From Promethearchaeia archaeon (GTDB taxonomy: Archaea; Asgardarchaeota; Lokiarchaeia; Sigyniarchaeales; SOKP01), in contig JAHQWK010000015.1 in the NCBI GenBank assembly GCA_029856145.1, positions 1 to 33,044 of the forward strand: a stretch of DNA of 33,044 nucleotides. The letters are read 5' to 3'. The notes beneath the pieces are model-generated. The model was not told the origin of the DNA, ran no database searches, and worked only from the letters and a program-made list of their open reading frames with translations. The position numbers and the translations under genes are program-made. Positions 2,718-32,610 of this stretch are shown here, one piece after another. Numbering within the stretch: position 1 is the stretch's first letter; the number at the start of each line of letters is the position of its first letter.

Positions 2718-3554
2718 ATGAGTGGTTTCAATTTAATAATAAAACCTGATGAAGATGATCCCGAAGCTGCCGAAGTCTATGTTGATGGAACGATTAGTGG
2801 GAAAAAATATCGCTTTATTCTTGATACTGGTTCAGCAAAAACCTATGTTCAATTTGATGATTACACTTCCACGTTTGGATGCATTCAAAAGCACAAATCT
2901 TCAGGAGCATTTGCAGAAAGTAATGATGATTTGATTAAAGTGCCATATATTCAACTTGGTCCCATCTTAAAAAAAAATTTCATGCTGGCTCGTTTACCAG
3001 AAAATTCTCTTAACACAAGAAATTTAATCGGGATGGACCTTCTTAAGGACTTCTGTTTTCAGTTTTTATTTAATGAAAATAGAGTTTCGGTTGATAATTC
3101 AGAAGGAATCCAGATTAGTGACTCTCTCCATGAACTTTTCCTAGGCAAGAAGTTTCATCCCTACATCAATATTCAATTCGGAAAGCTGAAAGCCACAGCG
3201 GTATGGGATACCGGTGCGGGAATTACGGTTGTAGACATTGATTTTATAAACAAGTTTCCCTCTTTTTTCCAAGAAATAGGAAAATCTATCGGTACAGACT
3301 CGACAGGGGTTAAAATGGAAACTCCTATGTTCACTATGGGGACAACCATAATTGTTAATAATGAATTTCCACCCCATAAAGTTGCCGGCGTCGATTTATC
3401 TTATTTAAATTCCACAACCGAAGTTCCTATGGATCTAATATTGGGTTACAGCACCCTAAGTAAAGCAAACTGGCTGTTTGATTTCCCCAATAAGAAGTGG
3501 GCGATTTTAAAAATGCTGAATGCAAATTCTGAAGAAGTTAATTCAGAAATCTGA
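2718..3554 (+). CDS. Retropepsin-like aspartyl protease with two tandem protease domains
   Basis: Two catalytic motifs, FILDTGS and VWDTGAG, each followed by a hydrophobic-Gly motif (LIGMDLL, ILGYSTL). Confidence 0.85.
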   Translation: MSGFNLIIKPDEDDPEAAEVYVDGTISGKKYRFILDTGSAKTYVQFDDYTSTFGCIQKHKSSGAFAESNDDLIKVPYIQLGPILKKNFMLARLPENSLNTRNLIGMDLLKDFCFQFLFNENRVSVDNSEGIQISDSLHELFLGKKFHPYINIQFGKLKATAVWDTGAGITVVDIDFINKFPSFFQEIGKSIGTDSTGVKMETPMFTMGTTIIVNNEFPPHKVAGVDLSYLNSTTEVPMDLILGYSTLSKANWLFDFPNKKWAILKMLNANSEEVNSEI

Positions 3555-22884: not shown

Positions 22885-22999
22885 ATTATATCCCCATTCA
22901 ATAAATATATTCTTATGAAGTCATATGAAAATATAGTACTTATTTATGTTTGCATATTTTTGTCGGATCGTGAATATTAAATCATTGCAGAAAATTTTA

Positions 23000-23103
23000 G
23001 CTCATGGACGGACTCCTCCTCATCTTGCCTTAAAACATCCAAACACTACCATCACCCCTCCTTAACCCTCTTACCCCAAGTCTGAACCATAAGCTCCTCT
23101 TTC
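23000..23103. repeat. Dispersed intergenic repeat, copy A (long, diverged)
   Basis: gctcatggacggactcc...tccaaacact...aagtctgaaccataagctcctctttc matches copy F (gctcatgaacatactcc...tccaaatact...aagcctgaacctttggttcctctttc) in three collinear blocks. Confidence 0.75.
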
Positions 23104-23335
23104 ATATAATTGCTTTGCTCTTCCAAAAATCGTATCATTGATTTTTGATATATGGCTATTAAAATATAATAAAATAAAAATATTAATTTGTCTTTAAAGG
23201 GCTAAATTTTTCATACAAAGGAAATAACTCGAAATTGTTAAAAAAAGGCCACTAGATAAAATGGAAAAAGAAAAAAAGAATTACGTAATTTAGTCTCGGA
23301 AAAAAAAGGAAAGATAAATATTAAAAAATAAAGTT

Positions 23336-23369
23336 AACCCTGAATATACTCCTTCATGATTTCATCTCA
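23336..23369. repeat. Dispersed intergenic repeat, copy B (short, diverged)
   Basis: A-tract, then aaccctgaatatactccttcatgatttcatctca. It abuts the stop codon of 23370..23750. Confidence 0.6.
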
Positions 23370-23750
23370 TTATTTTAGCAAAGCATTACGAGCCTTTTCT
23401 AAGTTATCTACCCCGAGAACTATTCTGTTATTCTCAGCAAAATAGATTAGGTCAATATTAACCCCTGCATCACCTATCACCCGAGCCATCTTCCCCCCTG
23501 TACCCGGTTTTTTCACAATATGACCGATATCCATAACGAGTACTTCACGTACGGCACGTACTTCAAAACCAGAGTCTTCGAGTGCCCAGCGCGTTGTTTC
23601 TTCATCTTCAACTAAAATGTGAACTACAGCTTCGTTTTTTAGCGGAAATCCACATAGGCCTTCCATATTAATGCCCATTTTGCCTAGGACCTCCCCCATA
23701 TCAGCTAAAGTACCCGGTTGATTTTTTAAAATAACAGTTAAATCCTTCAT
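23370..23750 (-). CDS. ACT-domain (amino-acid-binding) protein
   Basis: Two ACT-like units, NQPGTLA..LG..GINME and KPGTGG....IGDAGVNIDLIY. GGAGG ribosome-binding site upstream. Confidence 0.88.
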   Translation of the reverse strand: MKDLTVILKNQPGTLADMGEVLGKMGINMEGLCGFPLKNEAVVHILVEDEETTRWALEDSGFEVRAVREVLVMDIGHIVKKPGTGGKMARVIGDAGVNIDLIYFAENNRIVLGVDNLEKARNALLK

Positions 23751-23899
23751 TTTTTTATTCCTCCAATTTCTATTATTTTATTTATTAAATCAAATCTTAT
23801 TTCGTTATCATGGGATTGCTTTCCAATGCTTAAATATGTCTTTTCCCTATTTAAGCTTTCTTTAAAATTTTACTCACACTTTTGGGAGTATAAGTAGGA

Positions 23900-23989
23900 A
23901 TGAAAGAAGCCTTTATTGCCTTAATACTTCCATTTATCCCGTGGATCATTTATATCATATTTGGAATTATGCTTGAAATGATGAACTAA
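23900..23989 (+). CDS. Putative 29-aa single-pass membrane peptide
   Basis: MKEAFIALILPFIPWIIYIIFGIMLEMMN*, with purine-rich GGAG/AGGA upstream. Confidence 0.3.
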   Translation: MKEAFIALILPFIPWIIYIIFGIMLEMMN

Positions 23990-24050
23990 GAAAAAGAAAT
24001 TTAAGAAAATAAATAAAGTAAAAATAGTAACTATATTTTTTTTTAAAATC

Positions 24051-24542
24051 TTAAGAATATAACTTCTTTACATACGATCTTAACGTTTCAATATTTTCAA
24101 AGTAAAATAAGCTTTCTTCCTCCCTAAAAAAAGGCGTTAATAAGCCTCCTCTTTTTAAGACCTCTGTAATTTCTACATCTTTTAATACAAATACTTTTGT
24201 CTTTTCAAAAAATTCCTTAAAGGAGAGGATAATTCCCATTTCAATCATGTGACCTCCTTTATCGTGTTCTATGATCATGATGATTTCATTCGAAAATTTT
24301 GCAATAAGATCAAATTTTAAAATCAGATTCTCAAGGTGAGTACGTCTAAATTCATTTTCAAAAAATCCAAGGTTATTTTCAATGGCATTTACAATCTTTT
24401 GCACTTCCTGTAGAGTAATGAAAGTTTCTTCACTATAAGAACCACATATAAAGATCTTGTTTTTCTTTAAATCATAAACGGAAAAAATACTAGTAAATTC
24501 ATCTAAAAAATCATCCCATGCATTATCATGTGAAACTTGCAT
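24051..24542 (-). CDS. Nucleoside deoxyribosyltransferase (NDT)-like fold protein
   Basis: KIFICGSY strand-loop and IIMIIEHDKGGHMIEMG (G-x3-E-x-G catalytic-Glu pattern). Confidence 0.55.
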   Translation of the reverse strand: MQVSHDNAWDDFLDEFTSIFSVYDLKKNKIFICGSYSEETFITLQEVQKIVNAIENNLGFFENEFRRTHLENLILKFDLIAKFSNEIIMIIEHDKGGHMIEMGIILSFKEFFEKTKVFVLKDVEITEVLKRGGLLTPFFREEESLFYFENIETLRSYVKKLYS

Positions 24543-24611
24543 TCTCTTTTCCCAATTTTTATAAAATGATTTAGAAATTCATTTATCTTATAAATTATTA
24601 TATATCAATAA

Positions 24612-24638
24612 TAATTGACTCAATTAATTTTGAGTTAA
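24612..24638. promoter_or_regulatory. Overlapping inverted repeats in a divergent promoter; candidate operator
   Basis: taattga-c-tcaatta (24612-24626) overlaps actcaa-N6-ttgagt (24618-24635), between the NDT-like gene and the ArsR-like gene. Confidence 0.45.
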
Positions 24639-24714
24639 ATTTAAATAGTTAATTATGCATATTTAGCATGGAATTAGATGAAAAACTAAATATAAATAAA
24701 AGGAGGTAAATGAT

Positions 24715-25056
24715 TTGGAAACTCCTAAAAAACTTGAAAATATGAGGAAAGAATTGGGAATCATATCAGAGAAAACACGGTATAAAATATTACTTACATT
24801 ATTAGCTAGTGAAAAGTCTCTCTCATTCAGTCGATTGAAGGAATTATTACCATCAATTCCAGAAAATAACTTGATTTATCATCTTAATATCCTTAAAGAA
24901 AGTAATTTTATTAATAATGAGAAAAGAATGGGATACAAGCGGTCCGAACCTCGCTCTTTTTATTCACTTAGTAAAAAATCGATTGAATTGCTAAGAAATC
25001 TTGGATTAACAGCTGTAAAGGAAGAATTTCAAGCTTTATTCAAGCAAATGACTTAA
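24715..25056 (+). CDS. ArsR-like winged-helix transcriptional regulator
   Basis: TRYKILLTL..LSFSRLKE..NLIYHLNILKESNFI..FYSLS. AGGAGGT lies 7 nt before the TTG. Confidence 0.85.
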   Translation: METPKKLENMRKELGIISEKTRYKILLTLLASEKSLSFSRLKELLPSIPENNLIYHLNILKESNFINNEKRMGYKRSEPRSFYSLSKKSIELLRNLGLTAVKEEFQALFKQMT

Positions 25057-25297
25057 TTTTGTTTATTATTATGAATGTAGGAATTTTATTTGATATTAAT
25101 TTTATTATATCACCTTTTCCTATAGAAAAAAGATTACTTTGGTTGTAAATTAATTCTGGCCATGTAAAGACTTAACAATTTTGTCCGATTTATCTGGTTT
25201 TTATGAATATTTATATAAAAATGTTAGATATAAATAAATATTAGAATTTCAAACTTAACTATTCAAATTATTATAATTAAATTTTGAGGTTTTAAAA

Positions 25298-25840
25298 ATG
25301 AAAAGAAATGATCTAATTCTATCAGGGATTCTCTTATTAGGGGTATTAATCATTACTATACTCATTGAAATCGTAAATTTCTTACTTAATAATCTACTTT
25401 TATATGGTGCTGATTTGATGAATGGACATGTTGCTATGATTGCTGAACTTAACAATGCTAACTTAATATTGTTTACTGCACTAATCATGAGCTTATTTAT
25501 TTTACTTCCCATTTTAATAATTACTACTGGATTTGAAATTAGGAATCTTTTAAAAAGAGGAGAATCTAAAATATACTTAATCTTTAATGTAATTATAGAT
25601 GGCTTATTAATTCTAAGTATCTTTATAATTTTCCTAGTGCTTGATCCACTCAGAGGAATAGCTTCATTTCCATGGGCTCCTTTTTCCGCCCCTGATATTG
25701 CTGCCGCCGTAATAGAACAAACAACTATTTATAATATCCCTACATTGCTATTCGTAATTGGTATGACCCCCGTTGCAATTGCTTCATTCATACTCAAGTT
25801 TAGAGCACTTAGAAAAGAAAAAAATGCTCCAAAATCTTAA
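25298..25840 (+). CDS. Hypothetical membrane protein (about 4 TM)
   Basis: Four hydrophobic segments; GAGGT upstream of the ATG. Confidence 0.75.
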   Translation: MKRNDLILSGILLLGVLIITILIEIVNFLLNNLLLYGADLMNGHVAMIAELNNANLILFTALIMSLFILLPILIITTGFEIRNLLKRGESKIYLIFNVIIDGLLILSIFIIFLVLDPLRGIASFPWAPFSAPDIAAAVIEQTTIYNIPTLLFVIGMTPVAIASFILKFRALRKEKNAPKS

Positions 25841-25854
25841 TTTTTTTTTTTTTT
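25841..25854 (+). terminator. T-tract, archaeal-type intrinsic terminator
   Basis: 14 consecutive T directly after the stop codon. Confidence 0.55.
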
Positions 25855-26040
25855 ATAGAAGTCGAATATAGTGAATCCGAACTGTATAAAACAAGGTATT
25901 TCCTCAAGGAATTTACTCCCATTTCCTAAGTTTTAATGATGATTAGGAGTTTATAATAAGAATAAAAAATAAGTTTTTTAACAATAAAACGTCAAGTTCG
26001 TAATAAAAAAAATTAGAAATATAAAAAGGAAAAAACCTCT

Positions 26041-26082
26041 GCTCAAGAACATACCCCATCTTTCTCGTCTCATCTCAAACCT
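26041..26082. repeat. Dispersed intergenic repeat, copy C
   Basis: A-tract, then gctcaagaacataccccatctttctcgtctcatctcaaacct. Confidence 0.85.
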
Positions 26083-26206
26083 GACTCGTGTTATAAAAGT
26101 TATGAAAAAATCTTAGAAAGATTAGCAATTTAATTAATAAATTAATTATAACTTCAATATATAGGGTTATGAGAATTAATGCAAACTAAATACCACATAT
26201 AAATCC

Positions 26207-27001
26207 ATGTCAACAATTTATTTTACCGAGAATCCAGATAGAAAAAGATTTGTAGCGTCGTTAATATCAAGGTTTAGAAATAATATCAAAGAAAAGGTTC
26301 TTATAAAAGTAAATCTTGTTTCATATAACCCATACCCTACCACAACTCATCCTGAAATGATTGAAGCGGTGTATGATCAAATTAAATCTAACGCTTCAGA
26401 AATTATTTGTGGGGATGGTCATAGCATAGGTTTACCTGCAAAAAAAATAGAAAATCATCCAATTATAGAAAAATGTAAAGAATTAGGTATTCCTTTCATA
26501 AATTTTTATGAACATTCTTTTAAAAAAGTAAAAAGTCCTCGAGGATTTACATTAAAAGTTTCAGAAATCCCATTTCAGCAGGATTTTATAATTTCTCTTC
26601 CAATTTTAAAGGATCACTTTACTGTAAAACTTACTAATGCTCTGAAAGATAAATTTGGATATTTAACAAGGGCCGAACGATTAAAAATGCACTCCAAAAT
26701 CAAAAACATTAATAAAGGAATTGCTGAATTAAACACTGTATTTAAATCTAATTTAATTATTTGCGATGCTTTGAAAGTCTTAGTAAAGGCTCAAGAATTT
26801 AGACATGGTGGAAAAGAAAAAAATTTAGGCTATCTTTTTGCAGGAACAGATCCTATTGCCTTAGATTATCACGGTTATAAGTTATTGCGCCCAATTTCGA
26901 TAACAATGAAAAATATAGATAATCCACTACAAATAAAATACATAAAATATGCTTTGGATTATGGAGTTGGGTCCAAGGATTATAAATTGGAAGAAATTTA
27001 A
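26207..27001 (+). CDS. DUF362-domain protein
   Basis: VLIKVNLV, TTTHPE, IISLPILKDH, TNALKDKFG and AGTDPIALD. Confidence 0.85.
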   Translation: MSTIYFTENPDRKRFVASLISRFRNNIKEKVLIKVNLVSYNPYPTTTHPEMIEAVYDQIKSNASEIICGDGHSIGLPAKKIENHPIIEKCKELGIPFINFYEHSFKKVKSPRGFTLKVSEIPFQQDFIISLPILKDHFTVKLTNALKDKFGYLTRAERLKMHSKIKNINKGIAELNTVFKSNLIICDALKVLVKAQEFRHGGKEKNLGYLFAGTDPIALDYHGYKLLRPISITMKNIDNPLQIKYIKYALDYGVGSKDYKLEEI

Positions 27002-27192
27002 TTGCTTCAATGTGATATAATCATTTACCCGGAATCTGTTTACAGGAGTCATTTTAAATACCATACTAAGCTATAAATACCCAAATTTCTTTCCTAATCT
27101 TTAAAGACCTAAAGATTTAACAAAAAATTATAAAAAAAAAGTCAAATCTAGATCATGAACTTAAAATAAAAAGATATAAAAATAAAAATTCT

Positions 27193-27243
27193 GCTCTAGA
27201 ACATACTCCACCCCTTCTCTTCTCTCAAACCTCTCCAAATACT
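27193..27243. repeat. Dispersed intergenic repeat, copy D
   Basis: A-tract, then gctctagaacatactccaccccttctcttctctcaaacctctccaaatact. It ends 9 nt from the stop of 27253..27744. Confidence 0.88.
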
Positions 27244-27252
27244 GAGAATGAA

Positions 27253-27744
27253 TTAATATTGTGATAAGAAATCCTCAACATCCTTTATGAAGTGCATTGT
27301 TCCTTTCTCTATTTGCCTAGTTAATGCATCTAAATCTCGAAAATCTGGATTGTCAACTAAAACATATTCTACAACAGAATCAATCCCTTTTATACTCGAT
27401 GGAATTTTATATTTATCCCAACATTTTTCCCTAACTAAATCCCAGTATTCTTTCTGAACAGTTTTATTGTATCCTCCCAACCATACTTCAAACCTGAATT
27501 CCTTATGCAGATATACAATTGCAATCTTCAATTTTCGATCTTTCAATAAAGGTGGGTTGACAGCGAAATACGTCATATCCATATATCCAAAATAAATACC
27601 TGACACAGCGTAATTAGGATATTTCTTTTTAAAATATGATCTCAATGATCCAAAATATTCCATTAATCCTCGATAAGCTTTCTGAATTGTCCCTTTCATT
27701 AGCTGGTTTCGATATTCAATCATATTGTCATGAAATGATACCAT
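27253..27744 (-). CDS. Conserved hypothetical protein (DUF7000-like, from recall)
   Basis: IQKAYRGLMEY, YFGYMDMTYF, LKIAIV and FEVWLGGYNK. Confidence 0.7.
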   Translation of the reverse strand: MVSFHDNMIEYRNQLMKGTIQKAYRGLMEYFGSLRSYFKKKYPNYAVSGIYFGYMDMTYFAVNPPLLKDRKLKIAIVYLHKEFRFEVWLGGYNKTVQKEYWDLVREKCWDKYKIPSSIKGIDSVVEYVLVDNPDFRDLDALTRQIEKGTMHFIKDVEDFLSQY

Positions 27745-27887
27745 ATATACAAATTGTGTTCAATACCTTTTATTTAATTGCATTAAATTATTTACACCGA
27801 GGAGTTAAGATTCACTGAATTTTCATGGAAATCAGACTCTGAATTTCCTTTTTCATGAAAAAAAAGAAAAAGATATATAAAAATAAT

Positions 27888-27935
27888 ACTCAAGAACATA
27901 CTCCATCCATACCATCTCAGATCGCTCCAGACGCC
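27888..27935. repeat. Dispersed intergenic repeat, copy E
   Basis: A-tract, then actcaagaacatactccatccataccatctcagatcgctccagacgcc. It ends about 20 nt from the stop of 27957..28277. Confidence 0.85.
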
Positions 27936-27956
27936 ATTCTCATTCATAAGTTCCAG

Positions 27957-28277
27957 TTATTTCCTATTAGCATTTAATATTGTATTTATTTCATTCCCAA
28001 TTTTGCGTAACTTCTCATTATTTTCTTCATCATACTTTCGGTCTCTCTCAACTGGCAACCGAAGGCACATCCCAATATCTTCATGAAGAATTAAATCGAA
28101 TTCAAAATCATTACTCTTATAAAAATTCATAATTGAACAAATACCAACAACATGTTCTAATAACTCTGCTATACCATTATTTTTAATAATATCCGCTATG
28201 CGATTAAACTTTAGATAAGTTTTATAACAGATATACAATCCATCACTAAATTCCGATTCAAACATTTTAATTTTCAA
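27957..28277 (-). CDS. Hypothetical protein
   Basis: 106-aa ORF with a GGTGA ribosome-binding site before the TTG; no recognised motif. Confidence 0.65.
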   Translation of the reverse strand: MKIKMFESEFSDGLYICYKTYLKFNRIADIIKNNGIAELLEHVVGICSIMNFYKSNDFEFDLILHEDIGMCLRLPVERDRKYDEENNEKLRKIGNEINTILNANRK

Positions 28278-28370
28278 ATAATCTCACCATATTTTTAAAA
28301 CCAGGTTCTATGAATTATAATATTATGATATCTACTTATTAAAAAATAAGAAAAAAAAATTAAAAAACTT

Positions 28371-28590
28371 GCTCATGAACATACTCCATCTCTTAATCTC
28401 ATCTCAATCTACCTCTCCAAATACTTTTATATACCCTTGCGCTCTAAGCCTGAACCTTTGGTTCCTCTTTCGAACGCCACACACTTGTGCTATTGAGAGT
28501 GGCGGGCTAAATAGGTCGCCCGAAAGCTCCCCACGTACACCCCCACCTCACTAAACCCGTCTTATACGGGTGCACTCGTCTCGTATACTC
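28371..28590. repeat. Dispersed repeat, copy F (longest), continuous with a GC-rich structured segment; candidate ncRNA or element end
   Basis: gctcatgaacatactccatc...ctctccaaatact...aagcctgaacctttggttcctctttc, followed by the stems cgccac/gtggcg, cgggc/gcccg and acccgt-cttat-acgggt. Confidence 0.8.
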
Positions 28591-28713
28591 TGATTTTTTT
28601 TATTTCATTTTTTATGTGATTTGTTCCATTATTTAAACCATTTATAGAACTAAAGCAAATTTGAGTTAGTTTTACTATCAAGTTTTAATATATATTAAAT
28701 TTCCAATTAAAAA

Positions 28714-28759
28714 TGGAACTATCGCGGAACTATCGGAAGCTCAATTATAAATGTAATCT
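28714..28759 (+). promoter_or_regulatory. 46-bp promoter/operator module, copy 1
   Basis: tGGAACTATCgcGGAACTATCggaagctcaaTTATAAAtgtaatct; 42/46 identical to 32496-32541. Confidence 0.75.
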
Positions 28760-28814
28760 TCTTAGTAATTTTTTCAATTCAATAATAAAAATCTTTAAAA
28801 AATGGTAAATAAAA

Positions 28815-31800
28815 ATGAAAAAAATAAAAGTTATTACGATTTTTTTCCTAATGTTACTTGGATTTAACTTCATATTACCTTTGAGCAAGTATATATATGT
28901 TAATCAATTAACTAATGAACCTAAAAATCCAAAATTAAGCAATGGAAGTATTATTATACAAACTCCCGAAAATAAAACATATACACAACCAATGAGAGGT
29001 CATTATCCCGCTACATATGGTTTTGAAAGTAAAGAAACGGGTACAAATCCAATTAATTGGCAAATTGATGATAATGGGGGTTCAGCAACCATAATTGATC
29101 ATTATAATGGTCATGAAAAGGTATTTCACTTAAAAGATAATTCAACGGAAGGAAATATTAGAGTAGAGCAAATTTTTGGTGAGTTACAATCTTCTGGGAC
29201 TATTGAATTCTGGATTGCAGACAGTAATGCTACTAATTCTTTAGTCACGTTATGGTTAGAATTACTTGATTCTAATGATGAAAGTAAAATTCGCTTGGTT
29301 ATAGATGATAATCAACTAAGATATAATAATGGAACAGAACAACATGTTGTTATAAATAATTTTGAGAATAATGTGTGGCATCATGTTAAAATTGATTTCA
29401 ATGCAGTTACCGATAAATGCGATATCTGGGCAGATGGAATTGAAGTTCTTACAAATGAAAATTGGTATATCTCAGGAGATAATATTAGGAAAATCGCGTT
29501 TAGCACTAGAATGAGTCTAGACTACGATATTTATCTTGATGCCCTTGGATATTCTTGGGATCCATATTATAACGAAGGAGATAACTTATATGAAGGATTA
29601 TTATTAAGTTACACCACATATTTTACTCCAGATTGGATTTCTTATTCTTTAGATGGTCAATCAAATAAAACTATCCTTGGAAATTCTACTATCCCTACAC
29701 CTGATCGAGGAATACATACTCTTCAAGTCTATGCAAACGATTCTATAGGCTCATTATATCAATCTGATATTCGATTTTTTAGTATTAATTATCAATCGCA
29801 TTTATTTGGTGAAAATTTTGAGACTATTACATATGAATCCCCTCAATCAAATGCGTCAGGATGGGGATCTGGGAGCATATCTTCTGAATTTAAGCAATTA
29901 AATATAATGGACGAAAGTTCTTACCAAAATGTAGAATATTTTGAGCTTGAAAAATCTGGTGATTATGTTTACATCATTTCTAGCGATGGTTTAACGGTAA
30001 TTGATGCTACCAATCCAGGAAATCTAACATCTATCACTGAATATGATTTTATAACTAACATCTATTCAGGTGGTATAGATATCGAAGGGAATTATGCATA
30101 TTTAGCTGCTGCAGAAAATGGATTGTTAATATTTGATATCTCTAATCCTTTACAACCCTCTCTTATAGGTTCTATTGATGTGTATAGATATGGAGGTTAT
30201 AATGTCGATATAGATTTAAATCCTGTTGATGTTGTTGTTTCAGGTAATTACGCTTATGTGGCTGGTGATGATTTTACTCATCACGCGGTTTTGGCTATAA
30301 ATGTAGCTAATCCTAGTGCTCCTGAAGTTGTATCGATTTGCTTATATGCTTTGGGTTGGTGGAATGCAAAATTAGCCCATAACGGAAATTTTTTGTATCT
30401 CTCAACTTATGGGATAATTGATATTTCTAATCCTAATAGTATATATCCACGAGGAAGTTTCGAAACAGGTAGTGGTTATCCAATGGACGTTGTATTAACT
30501 AGTAATTATGCCTATGTTTTGCGCGATTATCTATATATACTTGACTTAAATAATCCAGATGATCTATACCTAGCGGCTACCTGTTATGTTGGAGGGATTA
30601 GTATCCACAGAAATAACAATTATTTATATATTTCAACCAGTGTTTTTCCATATCCTACTATTGAAATTCGTGTGATAGACATCACTAATCCTGTAAATCC
30701 ACTATTGATTTACAGGTCTGATTGTAATCATCTGTTTAGCAGTATGAGAATTTCTGAAAACATACTTTATGGTACAAGGTATGCCTTTGGATTTATAGTG
30801 AGTGTTGATTTAAGTAACGTTGGTCAGTATCAATTAGCAACTATAGCTGAATCAAAAACAATCTCTTCAATTGGAGTGGATTATATATTTAAGGAATTTT
30901 ATTTATTGGTCGATCAAAATTTAGAGGGGGGAACCTTAATCCAATATTATTTATCTGTTGACAACGGCATCCATTGGGAAGAAATTAACCCTAATATTCA
31001 TTATAAAATTGAAAATAAAGGAAATGATTTGAAATGGAAGGCGATCTTCACTACTTCAAATCCTTATCATAAACCTACTCTAAATTCACTCACGATAGTA
31101 TATACATATAAAAAATTGCTTGAAGCTCCAAACCTTATAATGCCTTTAAACAATTCTTTAATTAATATAAACGAACCGAGTTTTGAATGGGAAAGTGTTT
31201 TTGGGACAATTAATTATTTAATAGAAATTGATACTTCATCAGACTTCAACTCTCTTAATATTCATCGTTATTACTCTCAAAACAATTTTTTATTCAATAT
31301 AATTTTGTCAGATGGACAATGGTTTTATAGAATAGCTGCGAACGATTCAGATGGAGATTTGGGATTTTATTCGGAGATAAGAAATTTTGGTATTGATACT
31401 GTTCCACCCGATATTCCCATTTTAATCTCCCCATTAAATAACACGTTAACTAATGATAATTTTCTAACTTTTCGCTGGACAGATATTCCTGACGTACGCA
31501 ATTACACTCTGCAATTCGACACATCTCCATTATTTACAAGTATCAATTTTATAGAAATAACAGATTTACCTTCAAATAATTTCACAACATCTCTAGACGA
31601 TGGTACATGGTATTGGAAATCTTGTGCAACGGATCTTGCTGGAAATAGGGGTTTCTTTTCGGAAATCCATTCTGTAACGATTGATTCTACTCCTCCAGAT
31701 ATTACCACTTTAATGGATCCGAATGATGAGAGTTTTATAAATACTGCGAGACCATCTTTCTCATGGAGTAGTGTATCCGATGCAGTAAATTATACATTGC

Positions 31801-32372
31801 AATTAGATAAATCTCCTTCCTTTTTGTCAATGGATCTTCTAGAATTACCTGGGATTAGATCCGAAAGTTACCGCGTAAGTTCGGACTTATCGGATGGTGA
31901 ATGGCATTGGAGGGTTTGCGCTTTTGATTCTGCTGGAAATCAGGGAATATATTCAAATTCATTTTCTTTAATTGTTGATACAATTATTCCGATTATTGAT
32001 AATCCTGATGATAATTCATATACACAAGGTAGTACAGGGAACGAAATTGCGTGGAATGGGTTTGATATCCATCCTGATTCATATTTTATAACAAGGGATG
32101 GAGTTACTATACATAATAGTCCTTGGGATGGAAGTCAAATCATTATTAATATTGATGGGTTATCAGCTGGTGAATACATATTTAATTGTACTATTTTTGA
32201 TAAAGGAGGCAATTTTAACAGTGATATTGTGTCTCTAAAGGTTGATTCCACTGAAACTGGTGGAGTGATTCCTTTTGAGTTGATTATTTTAACTTCCGTT
32301 ATTGGTGTAGGAACAGTAATAGGAGTAGCAAGCATATTGTTAATCAGAAGAAAAAGAAAAAACCCAAAATAA
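28815..32372 (+). CDS. Large membrane-anchored cell-surface protein (LamG/ConA-like domain, LVIVD repeats, Ig/FnIII-like repeats)
   Basis: N-terminal signal peptide; SGTIEFW/WHHVKIDF beta-sandwich; repeated GNYAY..GLLIFDISNP units; three LSDGxWxWR..D.AGN repeats plus one further Ig-like unit; C-terminal TM and RRKRK; many NxS/T sequons. Confidence 0.9.
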   Translation: MKKIKVITIFFLMLLGFNFILPLSKYIYVNQLTNEPKNPKLSNGSIIIQTPENKTYTQPMRGHYPATYGFESKETGTNPINWQIDDNGGSATIIDHYNGHEKVFHLKDNSTEGNIRVEQIFGELQSSGTIEFWIADSNATNSLVTLWLELLDSNDESKIRLVIDDNQLRYNNGTEQHVVINNFENNVWHHVKIDFNAVTDKCDIWADGIEVLTNENWYISGDNIRKIAFSTRMSLDYDIYLDALGYSWDPYYNEGDNLYEGLLLSYTTYFTPDWISYSLDGQSNKTILGNSTIPTPDRGIHTLQVYANDSIGSLYQSDIRFFSINYQSHLFGENFETITYESPQSNASGWGSGSISSEFKQLNIMDESSYQNVEYFELEKSGDYVYIISSDGLTVIDATNPGNLTSITEYDFITNIYSGGIDIEGNYAYLAAAENGLLIFDISNPLQPSLIGSIDVYRYGGYNVDIDLNPVDVVVSGNYAYVAGDDFTHHAVLAINVANPSAPEVVSICLYALGWWNAKLAHNGNFLYLSTYGIIDISNPNSIYPRGSFETGSGYPMDVVLTSNYAYVLRDYLYILDLNNPDDLYLAATCYVGGISIHRNNNYLYISTSVFPYPTIEIRVIDITNPVNPLLIYRSDCNHLFSSMRISENILYGTRYAFGFIVSVDLSNVGQYQLATIAESKTISSIGVDYIFKEFYLLVDQNLEGGTLIQYYLSVDNGIHWEEINPNIHYKIENKGNDLKWKAIFTTSNPYHKPTLNSLTIVYTYKKLLEAPNLIMPLNNSLININEPSFEWESVFGTINYLIEIDTSSDFNSLNIHRYYSQNNFLFNIILSDGQWFYRIAANDSDGDLGFYSEIRNFGIDTVPPDIPILISPLNNTLTNDNFLTFRWTDIPDVRNYTLQFDTSPLFTSINFIEITDLPSNNFTTSLDDGTWYWKSCATDLAGNRGFFSEIHSVTIDSTPPDITTLMDPNDESFINTARPSFSWSSVSDAVNYTLQLDKSPSFLSMDLLELPGIRSESYRVSSDLSDGEWHWRVCAFDSAGNQGIYSNSFSLIVDTIIPIIDNPDDNSYTQGSTGNEIAWNGFDIHPDSYFITRDGVTIHNSPWDGSQIIINIDGLSAGEYIFNCTIFDKGGNFNSDIVSLKVDSTETGGVIPFELIILTSVIGVGTVIGVASILLIRRKRKNPK

Positions 32373-32495
32373 AATAATAATTTCCAATTTTTTTTTTAAT
32401 TTTATTTTTAGTAAAAATTTCTTAGTTAACAATATTAATCATAACAGAAGACTCTATTTTTTTTATCTTTATTTTATAAAACATCCATAGAGAAT

Positions 32496-32541
32496 TGGAA
32501 CTATCACGGAACTTTCGGAAGCTCAATTATAAAGGAAATCT
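32496..32541 (+). promoter_or_regulatory. 46-bp promoter/operator module, copy 2
   Basis: tGGAACTATCacGGAACTTTCggaagctcaaTTATAAAggaaatct, upstream of the ORF starting at 32611. Confidence 0.75.
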
Positions 32542-32610
32542 AAATAATTTTTTTTTATACCAATAAAATCCTTGATTAAAAAAATATAAAGATAAAAAAG
32601 GGTGATGAAA

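Follow-up and report, generated by a model that had tools for sequence, protein, structure and literature searches.

Copies of the 23S rRNA gene tail separate unrelated genes in a variable array of a Loki-type Asgard archaeon

What is the noncoding repeat that separates a series of unrelated genes within 5.6 kb of an Asgard archaeal contig, and how could such an array arise? The DNA we analyzed (the window) is the complete 33,044-nt contig C15 of a 3.55-Mb, 30% G+C metagenome-assembled genome (MAG), G000, which carries Ras-family GTPases and is that of a Loki-type Asgard archaeon. The initial annotation had marked positions 23000 to 28590 as an array punctuated by six co-oriented copies (A to F) of an unrecognized element, possibly a gene-capture system. 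We found that the repeat is the tail of the 23S rRNA gene, made up of the last 23S bases, the 3′ trailer, and an oligo-T tract, and that the copies other than F are 5′-truncated pieces of the trailer. Array content varies between species and between strains, with break points in the copies. We consider it probable that the window from 23.0 to 33.0 kb is the far part of an additive gene island anchored at the rRNA gene, whose cassettes recombine at the tail copies, likely through homology. Below, the other G-numbers denote congener genomes and L-numbers denote extracted loci or contigs, some from other samples of this species.

Results

Identity of the repeat: the tail of the 23S rRNA gene

At the gathering threshold, Rfam returned nothing for the whole window, and a tRNA scan found none. 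An rRNA match emerged only in a sensitive scan of the region, where the archaeal large subunit (LSU) rRNA model RF02540 matched the minus strand at 28577..28487 (58.3 bits with a cut-off of 50, E 4.9e-15, model positions 2885–2973 of 2987). This match lies in copy F (28365–28592, minus strand), which we measured at 228 nt, consistent with its annotation as the long copy. From about 28590, copy F aligns base for base with the true 23S ends of four congeners and enters a stretch of 56% G+C within the 30% G+C genome. Its first part (28473..28592, minus strand) comprises the last ~120 nt of the 23S gene, with the helices near the 3′ end. The 23S 3′ end falls at about 28473, and the second part (28365..28472, minus strand) is the complete ~100-nt trailer, which aligns with the trailers of G001, G010, G007, and G005 and ends in the core GGAGTATGTTCATGAGC. 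Past it lies a T-rich, terminator-like tract with oligo-T and TATA-like runs (28335..28364, minus strand), and the same tract follows the relatives' true trailers. 5′ of 28590, copy F gives way to A/T-rich DNA that is not rRNA. Copy F, then, is an extra, truncated version of the 23S tail and neither a complete ~3-kb functional 23S gene nor half of a split gene. An LSU search of G000 gave copy F as the sole match in the genome and no assembled 23S gene; the gene is probably on the minus strand past the contig end (33044). Thus, what had been annotated as an unrecognized element with F as its master is the 23S 3′ end plus trailer, F is another truncated copy, and the master is the 23S gene itself. 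The annotation had also held that the repeat is neither an attC palindrome nor a tRNA end. We found no dyad symmetry and no tRNA, but the repeat is nonetheless the rRNA counterpart of a tRNA end.

Using only four relatives (G001, G010, G007, and G005, the last being a scaffold with N gaps whose 23S is cut 370 nt from the end), we built a 261-position profile of the true 23S end and trailer and scanned all 3.55 Mb of G000 with it. The profile recovered five copies, all on the minus strand: A (E 0.0097), C (E 0.015), D (E 4e-4), E (E 0.0075), and F (E 2.7e-64). Copies C, D, E, and F also match one another (nhmmer E 1e-10 to 1e-12). All five share a 3′ end at profile positions 256–261, where GAGC is followed by the T-rich tract, and their 5′ starts range from 28 to 210, which bears out the annotated pattern of one common end and variable lengths. 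Copy F covers profile positions 28–261 (28–147 for the 23S part and 148–261 for the trailer). Copy E (27886..27934; profile 196–257) starts 22 nt past the stop codon of an orphan gene, copy D (27192..27244; profile 194–256) starts 8 nt past a DUF7000 stop codon, and copy C (26040..26087; profile 210–256) is the site of a strain difference described below. Copy A (22999..23103; profile 149–256) is a diverged whole trailer without the rRNA body. It sits within a ~315-nt stretch that is absent at that spot in G010 and G016, and the 200 nt beside it have no counterpart among 53 congeners. The sixth copy, B (23336..23369, minus strand), fell below threshold and was not found at E ≤ 1 in a locus-level profile search, so that the annotated set of six co-oriented copies stands for five. 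Copy B lies flush with the stop codon of an ACT-domain gene and is followed by a T-tract, its minus strand holds GAGATGA and GGAGTAT at the correct spacing, and its region is kept as the ACT 3′ flank in G010; it may be an old, decayed copy that is not significant by itself. The proximity of B, D, and E to minus-strand stop codons agrees with the initial annotation.

Besides the five matches within these 5.6 kb, the genome-wide scan gave a single further one, close to the end of contig C26; all six are in an array-like context. We therefore ruled out a dispersed repeat of the miniature inverted-repeat transposable element or repetitive extragenic palindromic kind, one of the alternatives raised at the outset, because the copies are not scattered over the genome.

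The conserved core is predicted to pair with the 23S leader

In archaeal rRNA maturation, helices between leader and trailer form the pre-rRNA processing stems. The leader ~150 nt upstream of the 23S gene reads GCTCATAAGAACATACTCC in G047, G041, and G045, the complement of the trailer core GGAGTATGTTCWWGAGC. Core and leader can pair over 13 bp and 4 bp with a 2-nt bulge in four relatives (G047, G041, G045, and G069), and G069 has AGGAAC in the leader against GTTCCT in the trailer, a compensatory A-U to G-C change that gives one covarying pair. Over ~150 nt, the leader–trailer duplex is predicted at −111 to −118 kcal/mol. From this complementarity, we identify the shared core GGAGTATGTTCWWGAGC as the distal arm of the pre-23S processing stem, and its pairing with the leader explains its constancy. 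Of note, the leader strand at the core has a 2-nt bulge rather than the canonical 3-4-3 bulge–helix–bulge, and the cleavage site may be nearer the mature ends. Nearly every copy retains an 11-nt core, GGAGTATGTTC, while adjacent positions vary, and column by column the copies are conserved to the same degree as the true trailers. We also considered a cassette-borne, leader-like arm that would form a local stem with the core and rejected it, as the window holds no sense-strand complement of the core.

Relatives carry arrays of tail copies directly behind the 23S gene

Of 24 congeners sampled, 22 contain the sequence of copy F. It is usually repeated several times on a contig, and the copies invariably point the same way. 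Three contigs (G001:C145, G010:C160, and G007:C98) start within the 23S gene and run on into arrays of 5 to 16 tail fragments; in G045 and G047, complete 23S genes are followed by arrays, and arrays are also present in G023 and G004. The flank that in the window carries the ACT gene and an NDT-like/ArsR gene pair lies 0.6 to 27 kb from the real 23S 3′ end in eight congeners, and the space between this flank and the 23S gene holds co-oriented tail copies and unrelated genes. The window from 12.9 to 25.06 kb is colinear with G010:C160, where the 23S gene lies 27 kb beyond ArsR. The distance from ArsR to the trailer is ~570 nt in G018, about 4 kb in G041, and at least 8 kb in the window. These arrays behind real 23S genes, with their range of lengths and the unit differences between strains, support the proposal that a polar array was built by repeated insertion at one site. 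A separate observation concerns the 23S gene of G045: in locus L038 (G045:C35, 14690–15820) the Rfam 23S match ends about 1.1 kb before the trailer, with a 211-aa open reading frame (ORF) in between, and this gap may be an intron or an insertion near the 23S 3′ end.

Across nine loci, all 47 of the 47 array copies are co-oriented with the 23S gene, and nearly all reach the common trailer end, with starts that span profile positions 1 to 221. Of these copies, 16 start within −40 to +25 nt of the stop codon of a co-oriented ORF, versus 4.6% of random positions (p about 1e-10, a value computed across related genomes that are not independent), and some copies contain the stop codon. The divergence gradient that had been proposed, with copies growing less similar to F with distance, is faint in the window, and six arrays of relatives show no such trend with distance from the 23S gene.

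Individual cassettes could be followed between genomes. Across the genus, the NDT-like/ArsR pair is kept stop to stop. In G004, G045, and G007, tail copies bound the pair, and the NDT-like cassette has an identical junction between its stop codon and the 23S sequence (23S position ~100–110). The cassette therefore keeps its own tail fragment. For the DUF7000 gene, the segment upstream (core, T-tract, and a motif, M1, described below) is common to the window and G007, the sequence past the stop codon is not, and the order of the array in G007 is different. Within the arrays, 77 ORFs matched 112 Pfam families, including zinc ribbons, Ras GTPases, winged helix-turn-helix regulators, beta-helix surface proteins, and hydrolases. 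The 23S direction is shared by 64% of array ORFs, and about a third are antisense to the copies.

One reading of these arrays is that the copies are mainly a reused module for termination or 3′-end processing that is kept by selection, with the array a by-product of local duplication. Every copy ends in the rRNA gene's own oligo-T tract, many start right at a stop codon, most array ORFs run in the 23S direction, and the copies show trailer-like conservation. However, about a third of the cargo is antisense to the copies, copy A and several of the relatives' copies have no gene in front of them, and the copies are restricted to the neighborhood of the 23S gene rather than serving genes genome-wide. 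Moreover, unrelated cargo differs between species and strains at the same locus, and therefore insertion and exchange are needed, not duplication. We regard this explanation as improbable in its full form. Termination may be an added role of the repeat, as the initial annotation had allowed, because each copy ends in the oligo-T tract of the rRNA gene; each T-tract probably also terminates the gene upstream.

A repeat-bounded unit is present or absent among strains at copy C

Look-ups of exact proteins gave contigs from other samples that are 98.5–99.9% identical to the window. In ten of them (L064, L065/L075, L077–L079, and L081–L084), an extra unit of 695 nt lies between two tail copies at copy C, with 37 nt of 26042–26078 found on both sides of it; the window and L076 are without the unit. 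Gain or loss of whole repeat-to-repeat units, which had been put forward as a check, is thus seen among close relatives. Both stretches of flanking identity between filled and empty alleles break off within the tail copy, one at TTTGAGA and the other at GAGC. A second difference lies at copy D: L079 (ERZ25073498) diverges from the window ~30 nt past the copy D core, on the DUF362 side, and has a whole core and a different neighbor where the window has an 8-nt partial core. This partial core (GTTCATGA in the rRNA sense, 27153–27160) lies 32 nt downstream of copy D and is probably a recombination scar.

No dedicated recombinase was found in the arrays examined

We searched for four Pfam families (PF00589, PF00239, PF00078, and PF07282). 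In G000, G001, G005, G007, G010, G045, and G047, there was no PF00589 or PF00239 match on an array contig. With PF00589, four of five genomes gave a ~310-aa Xer-like gene, G000 gave no match, and the few integrases detected lie on unrelated contigs; among them are those of G007, one of which lies beside a defense-like gene. PF00239 gave nothing in the genomes searched. Consistent with the initial annotation, the 29 window ORFs scanned include no recombinase, and no recombinase family is among the 25 commonest of the 112 Pfam families in the array ORFs. The reverse transcriptase family PF00078 has one gene in one of five genomes, outside the arrays, and PF07282 (TnpB) has four matches in three genomes. 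Neither family has a match on a contig that abuts the 23S gene; tail fragments do occur on the contig of the weakest PF07282 match (G001:C23), which scored below Pfam's cut-off. The suggested tie of the repeat to a recombinase, transposase, or reverse transcriptase was therefore not borne out on array contigs abutting the 23S gene in the genomes and families searched. Among viral sequences in IMG/VR, we found 16 exact matches to a 17-mer of the core, roughly what chance would give; no contig had an extended tail-like attP. A 9-bp dyad with the spacer TAACCG is absent from the window, from G000, and from the arrays examined.

These searches bear on site-specific integration, in which small elements or satellites with an attP that copies the 23S tail would insert at the core by means of a tyrosine-type integrase located elsewhere or since lost. 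The arrays resemble those at tRNA genes in that a truncated 3′ piece of a stable-RNA gene is repeated in one direction with the intact gene rebuilt, the 11-nt core persists in nearly every copy amid variable neighbors, and the Xer-like recombinase is present in four of the five genomes searched. Yet no integrase is in or beside any array examined, G000 lacks a PF00589 match altogether, units of 0.3–1.5 kb are too small for autonomy, and IMG/VR offered chance matches in place of a tail-like attP. In addition, the two break points at copy C are not at one fixed position, and the conservation of the core mirrors that in true trailers, where it is explained by leader pairing. We consider such integration unlikely.

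An RNA-mediated origin can be treated in the same way. Here, reverse transcription would be primed at the pre-rRNA trailer end and would switch template to mRNAs, as for truncated non-long-terminal-repeat copies in rDNA, and would yield the shared 3′ end, the variable 5′ end, and the junctions at stop codons. However, only one of five genomes gave a reverse transcriptase, which lies outside the arrays, the cassettes retain promoter regions and antisense genes, and there are no poly-A tails or target-site duplications. We give this origin almost no credence.

Genes and other motifs in the window

As annotated, the genes between the copies are functionally unrelated by Pfam. From the far end, they encode an ACT-domain protein (23370..23750, minus strand, 126 aa; PF01842/PF22468); a divergent pair (24051..25056) of an NDT-like/DUF8170 protein (24051–24542, minus strand) and an ArsR-type helix-turn-helix regulator (24715–25056, plus strand), both assigned by Pfam; a hydrophobic membrane protein without a Pfam family (25298..25840, plus strand, 180 aa); a DUF362 protein (26207..27001, plus strand, 264 aa; PF04015, E 2.5e-34); a DUF7000 protein (27253..27744, minus strand, 163 aa; PF22526, E 2e-58); and an orphan ORF of 102–106 aa without a Pfam family (27957..28277, minus strand). 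On the 23S side of copy F lies a gene for a 1185-aa surface protein with LVIVD repeats, Big_13, and CBM domains (28815..32372, plus strand).

The LVIVD gene has on both sides an 82-nt direct repeat, M3 (28693–28774 and 32475–32556, 78% identical), which contains two GGAACTATCG units and CTCAATTATAAA and lies 60–90 nt upstream of plus-strand genes for surface or membrane proteins. Further M3 copies in G000 are at C12:31935, 34059, and 37275, at C23:110701, and at C26:86676. M3 is probably a shared promoter or operator; it may also mark the edge of another type of cassette. Large antisense surface-protein genes also lie inside a long tail copy in G007 (L025, 4104–7361, 1001 aa) and in G001 (L026, 3456–6475, 881 aa), and the G001 fragments that flank the gene overlap by 48 nt (profile 46–93), resembling a duplication made by insertion. 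The LVIVD gene adjoining copy F looks like a member of the same class.

M1 (27828..27846, minus strand) is the center of a ~48-nt conserved element 40 nt past copy E; it reads GGAAAGGTAAATTCAGAGTCTGATTTCAATGAAAATTCCTTTGAAAAA in the rRNA sense and holds a TCAGAnTCTGA palindrome. It often lies ~35 nt past a tail copy, where the cassette-specific sequence starts. Elsewhere in G000, M1 occurs at C26:86459, 89330, 90429, and 91528; C30:18278, 20873, 70408, and 71067; C9:126674; and C17:217, and it is also present outside arrays, for example in G007:C43 upstream of an AAA_15/Schlafen gene beside an integrase. Neither strand of M1 gives a stable fold, and it may serve as an operator, a junction site, or a terminator. 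Outside the array, a 278-aa protein encoded at 2718–3554 in the window, beside an anaerobic ribonucleotide reductase, has two aspartyl protease domains of the retropepsin-like type (gag-asp_proteas and RVP).

Discussion

We infer that cassettes enter and leave the array by a single crossover between a tail fragment that they carry and a resident copy. A cassette would consist of one to three genes plus a 5′-truncated tail copy, which begins close to or directly at the stop codon and extends as far as the common 3′ end. A circular unit bearing the fragment [s..end] would recombine once with the resident trailer, in the manner of a Campbell insertion, to give the order 23S gene, intact trailer, cargo, cargo stop codon, [s..end], and older units. 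The crossover would thereby rebuild an intact trailer for the rRNA gene and leave the truncated copy behind the new cargo, and the reverse reaction between two copies would excise a unit. This single-crossover model explains why the copies share a 3′ end yet start at variable, heritable 5′ positions, why the array is polar, and why the rRNA gene is intact.

As to what performs the crossover, our preference is for the cell's general recombination acting on short homology, because no dedicated recombinase was found; we put this at somewhat short of an even chance. Non-coincident break points at copy C, together with trailer-like conservation, fit frequent homology-driven exchange and gene conversion. 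An unrecognized or trans-acting site-specific enzyme, for which the invariant 11-nt core leaves room, is a possibility to which we assign distinctly less weight.

Several points weigh against an rRNA-anchored island that exchanges cassettes by homology. The 23S gene of G000 itself is unassembled, and the anchoring in this genome therefore depends on synteny. Identical blocks among copies are short, amounting to the 11-nt core, which is little for ordinary homologous recombination. At copy C, the ~29 nt between TTTGAGA and GAGC of the empty allele are unlike both copies of the filled allele, so that no single simple crossover relates the two alleles, and several events or gene conversion have to be assumed. 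The model does not account for the first joining of a gene's stop codon to a tail fragment, which might arise by deletion of dispensable DNA between the stop codon and a terminator-bearing copy. Finally, our recombinase searches span only five to seven genomes and four Pfam families, and MAGs are incomplete.

The landing sites described so far for new genes in prokaryotes are mostly tRNA and tmRNA genes and integrons, each with a dedicated recombinase. Here, the tail of an rRNA gene, kept constant through the need for rRNA maturation, takes the role of landing site without a recognizable enzyme. The arrays hold kinds of genes that vary among Asgard genomes, such as Ras-type GTPases, surface proteins, and regulators. 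If general recombination acts on an RNA-processing arm, it would offer archaea a simple route to exchangeable islands and would explain breaks of Asgard MAGs at rRNA genes. The tail copies are also a practical marker of flexible regions and of contigs that belong beside a 23S gene. A bolder reading, which we advance as a long shot, is that a gene-capture system, without an integrase or with an enzyme of unknown kind, uses the distal arm of the 23S processing stem as its dedicated recombination site and forms an archaeal, rRNA-anchored counterpart of the integron in several Asgard lineages. Were this so, the capture system would feed surface proteins, small GTPases, and regulators into a position next to a strongly transcribed gene.

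The array can be set against four described systems. Animal R1 and R2 retroelements of the 28S rDNA share with the present arrays a large-subunit rRNA gene as the target and truncated copies with one common end. They are set apart by insertion within the gene, which inactivates that rDNA unit, by a reverse transcriptase of their own, and by the lack of host cargo. In SAR11 bacteria, the hypervariable region HVR2 lies between the 23S and 5S rRNA genes and is likewise a strain-variable island directly behind a 23S gene; it is not known to be partitioned by repeated copies of an rRNA tail.

Integrons, including clusters of attC sites lacking integrases (CALINs), are closer. They too have small, mostly single-gene cassettes in which a repeat abuts the stop codon, and their order and content are shuffled among relatives. 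In contrast to integrons, headed by intI with attI and a promoter, the present array has the 23S gene at its head, with no intI or tyrosine recombinase found there. The repeat is a 5′-truncated linear piece of rRNA sequence, colinear with one strand and without dyad symmetry, whereas attC is an imperfect inverted repeat with two core sites (R''/L'' and L'/R' boxes) that forms a single-stranded hairpin. A further difference is that a third of the genes are antisense and the cassettes retain their own upstream regions.

We found no description in the literature of gene arrays built on a 23S tail. The paper on Heimdallarchaeum mobile elements deals with aloposons that target tRNA genes and with one element located between the 16S gene and a tRNA, and not with 23S-tail arrays. 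Additive islands marked by repeated tRNA 3′ ends have been described, with sizes that range from 330 bp to 42 kb between strains (PMC10872708). The likeness of such tandem tRNA and tmRNA islands to the 23S-tail array is extensive: the stable-RNA gene stays intact, truncated co-oriented copies of its 3′ end part variable cargo over a wide range of sizes (0.6 to 27 kb here), and repeat-bounded units are present or absent between close relatives. They differ in that the anchor here is the 23S gene with its processing trailer, the copies reach up to 260 nt and have many starts, the units are mostly of single genes, and no integrase was found in or near the arrays. Of the systems described, the tRNA 3′-end islands and integrons come closest to the 23S-tail array.

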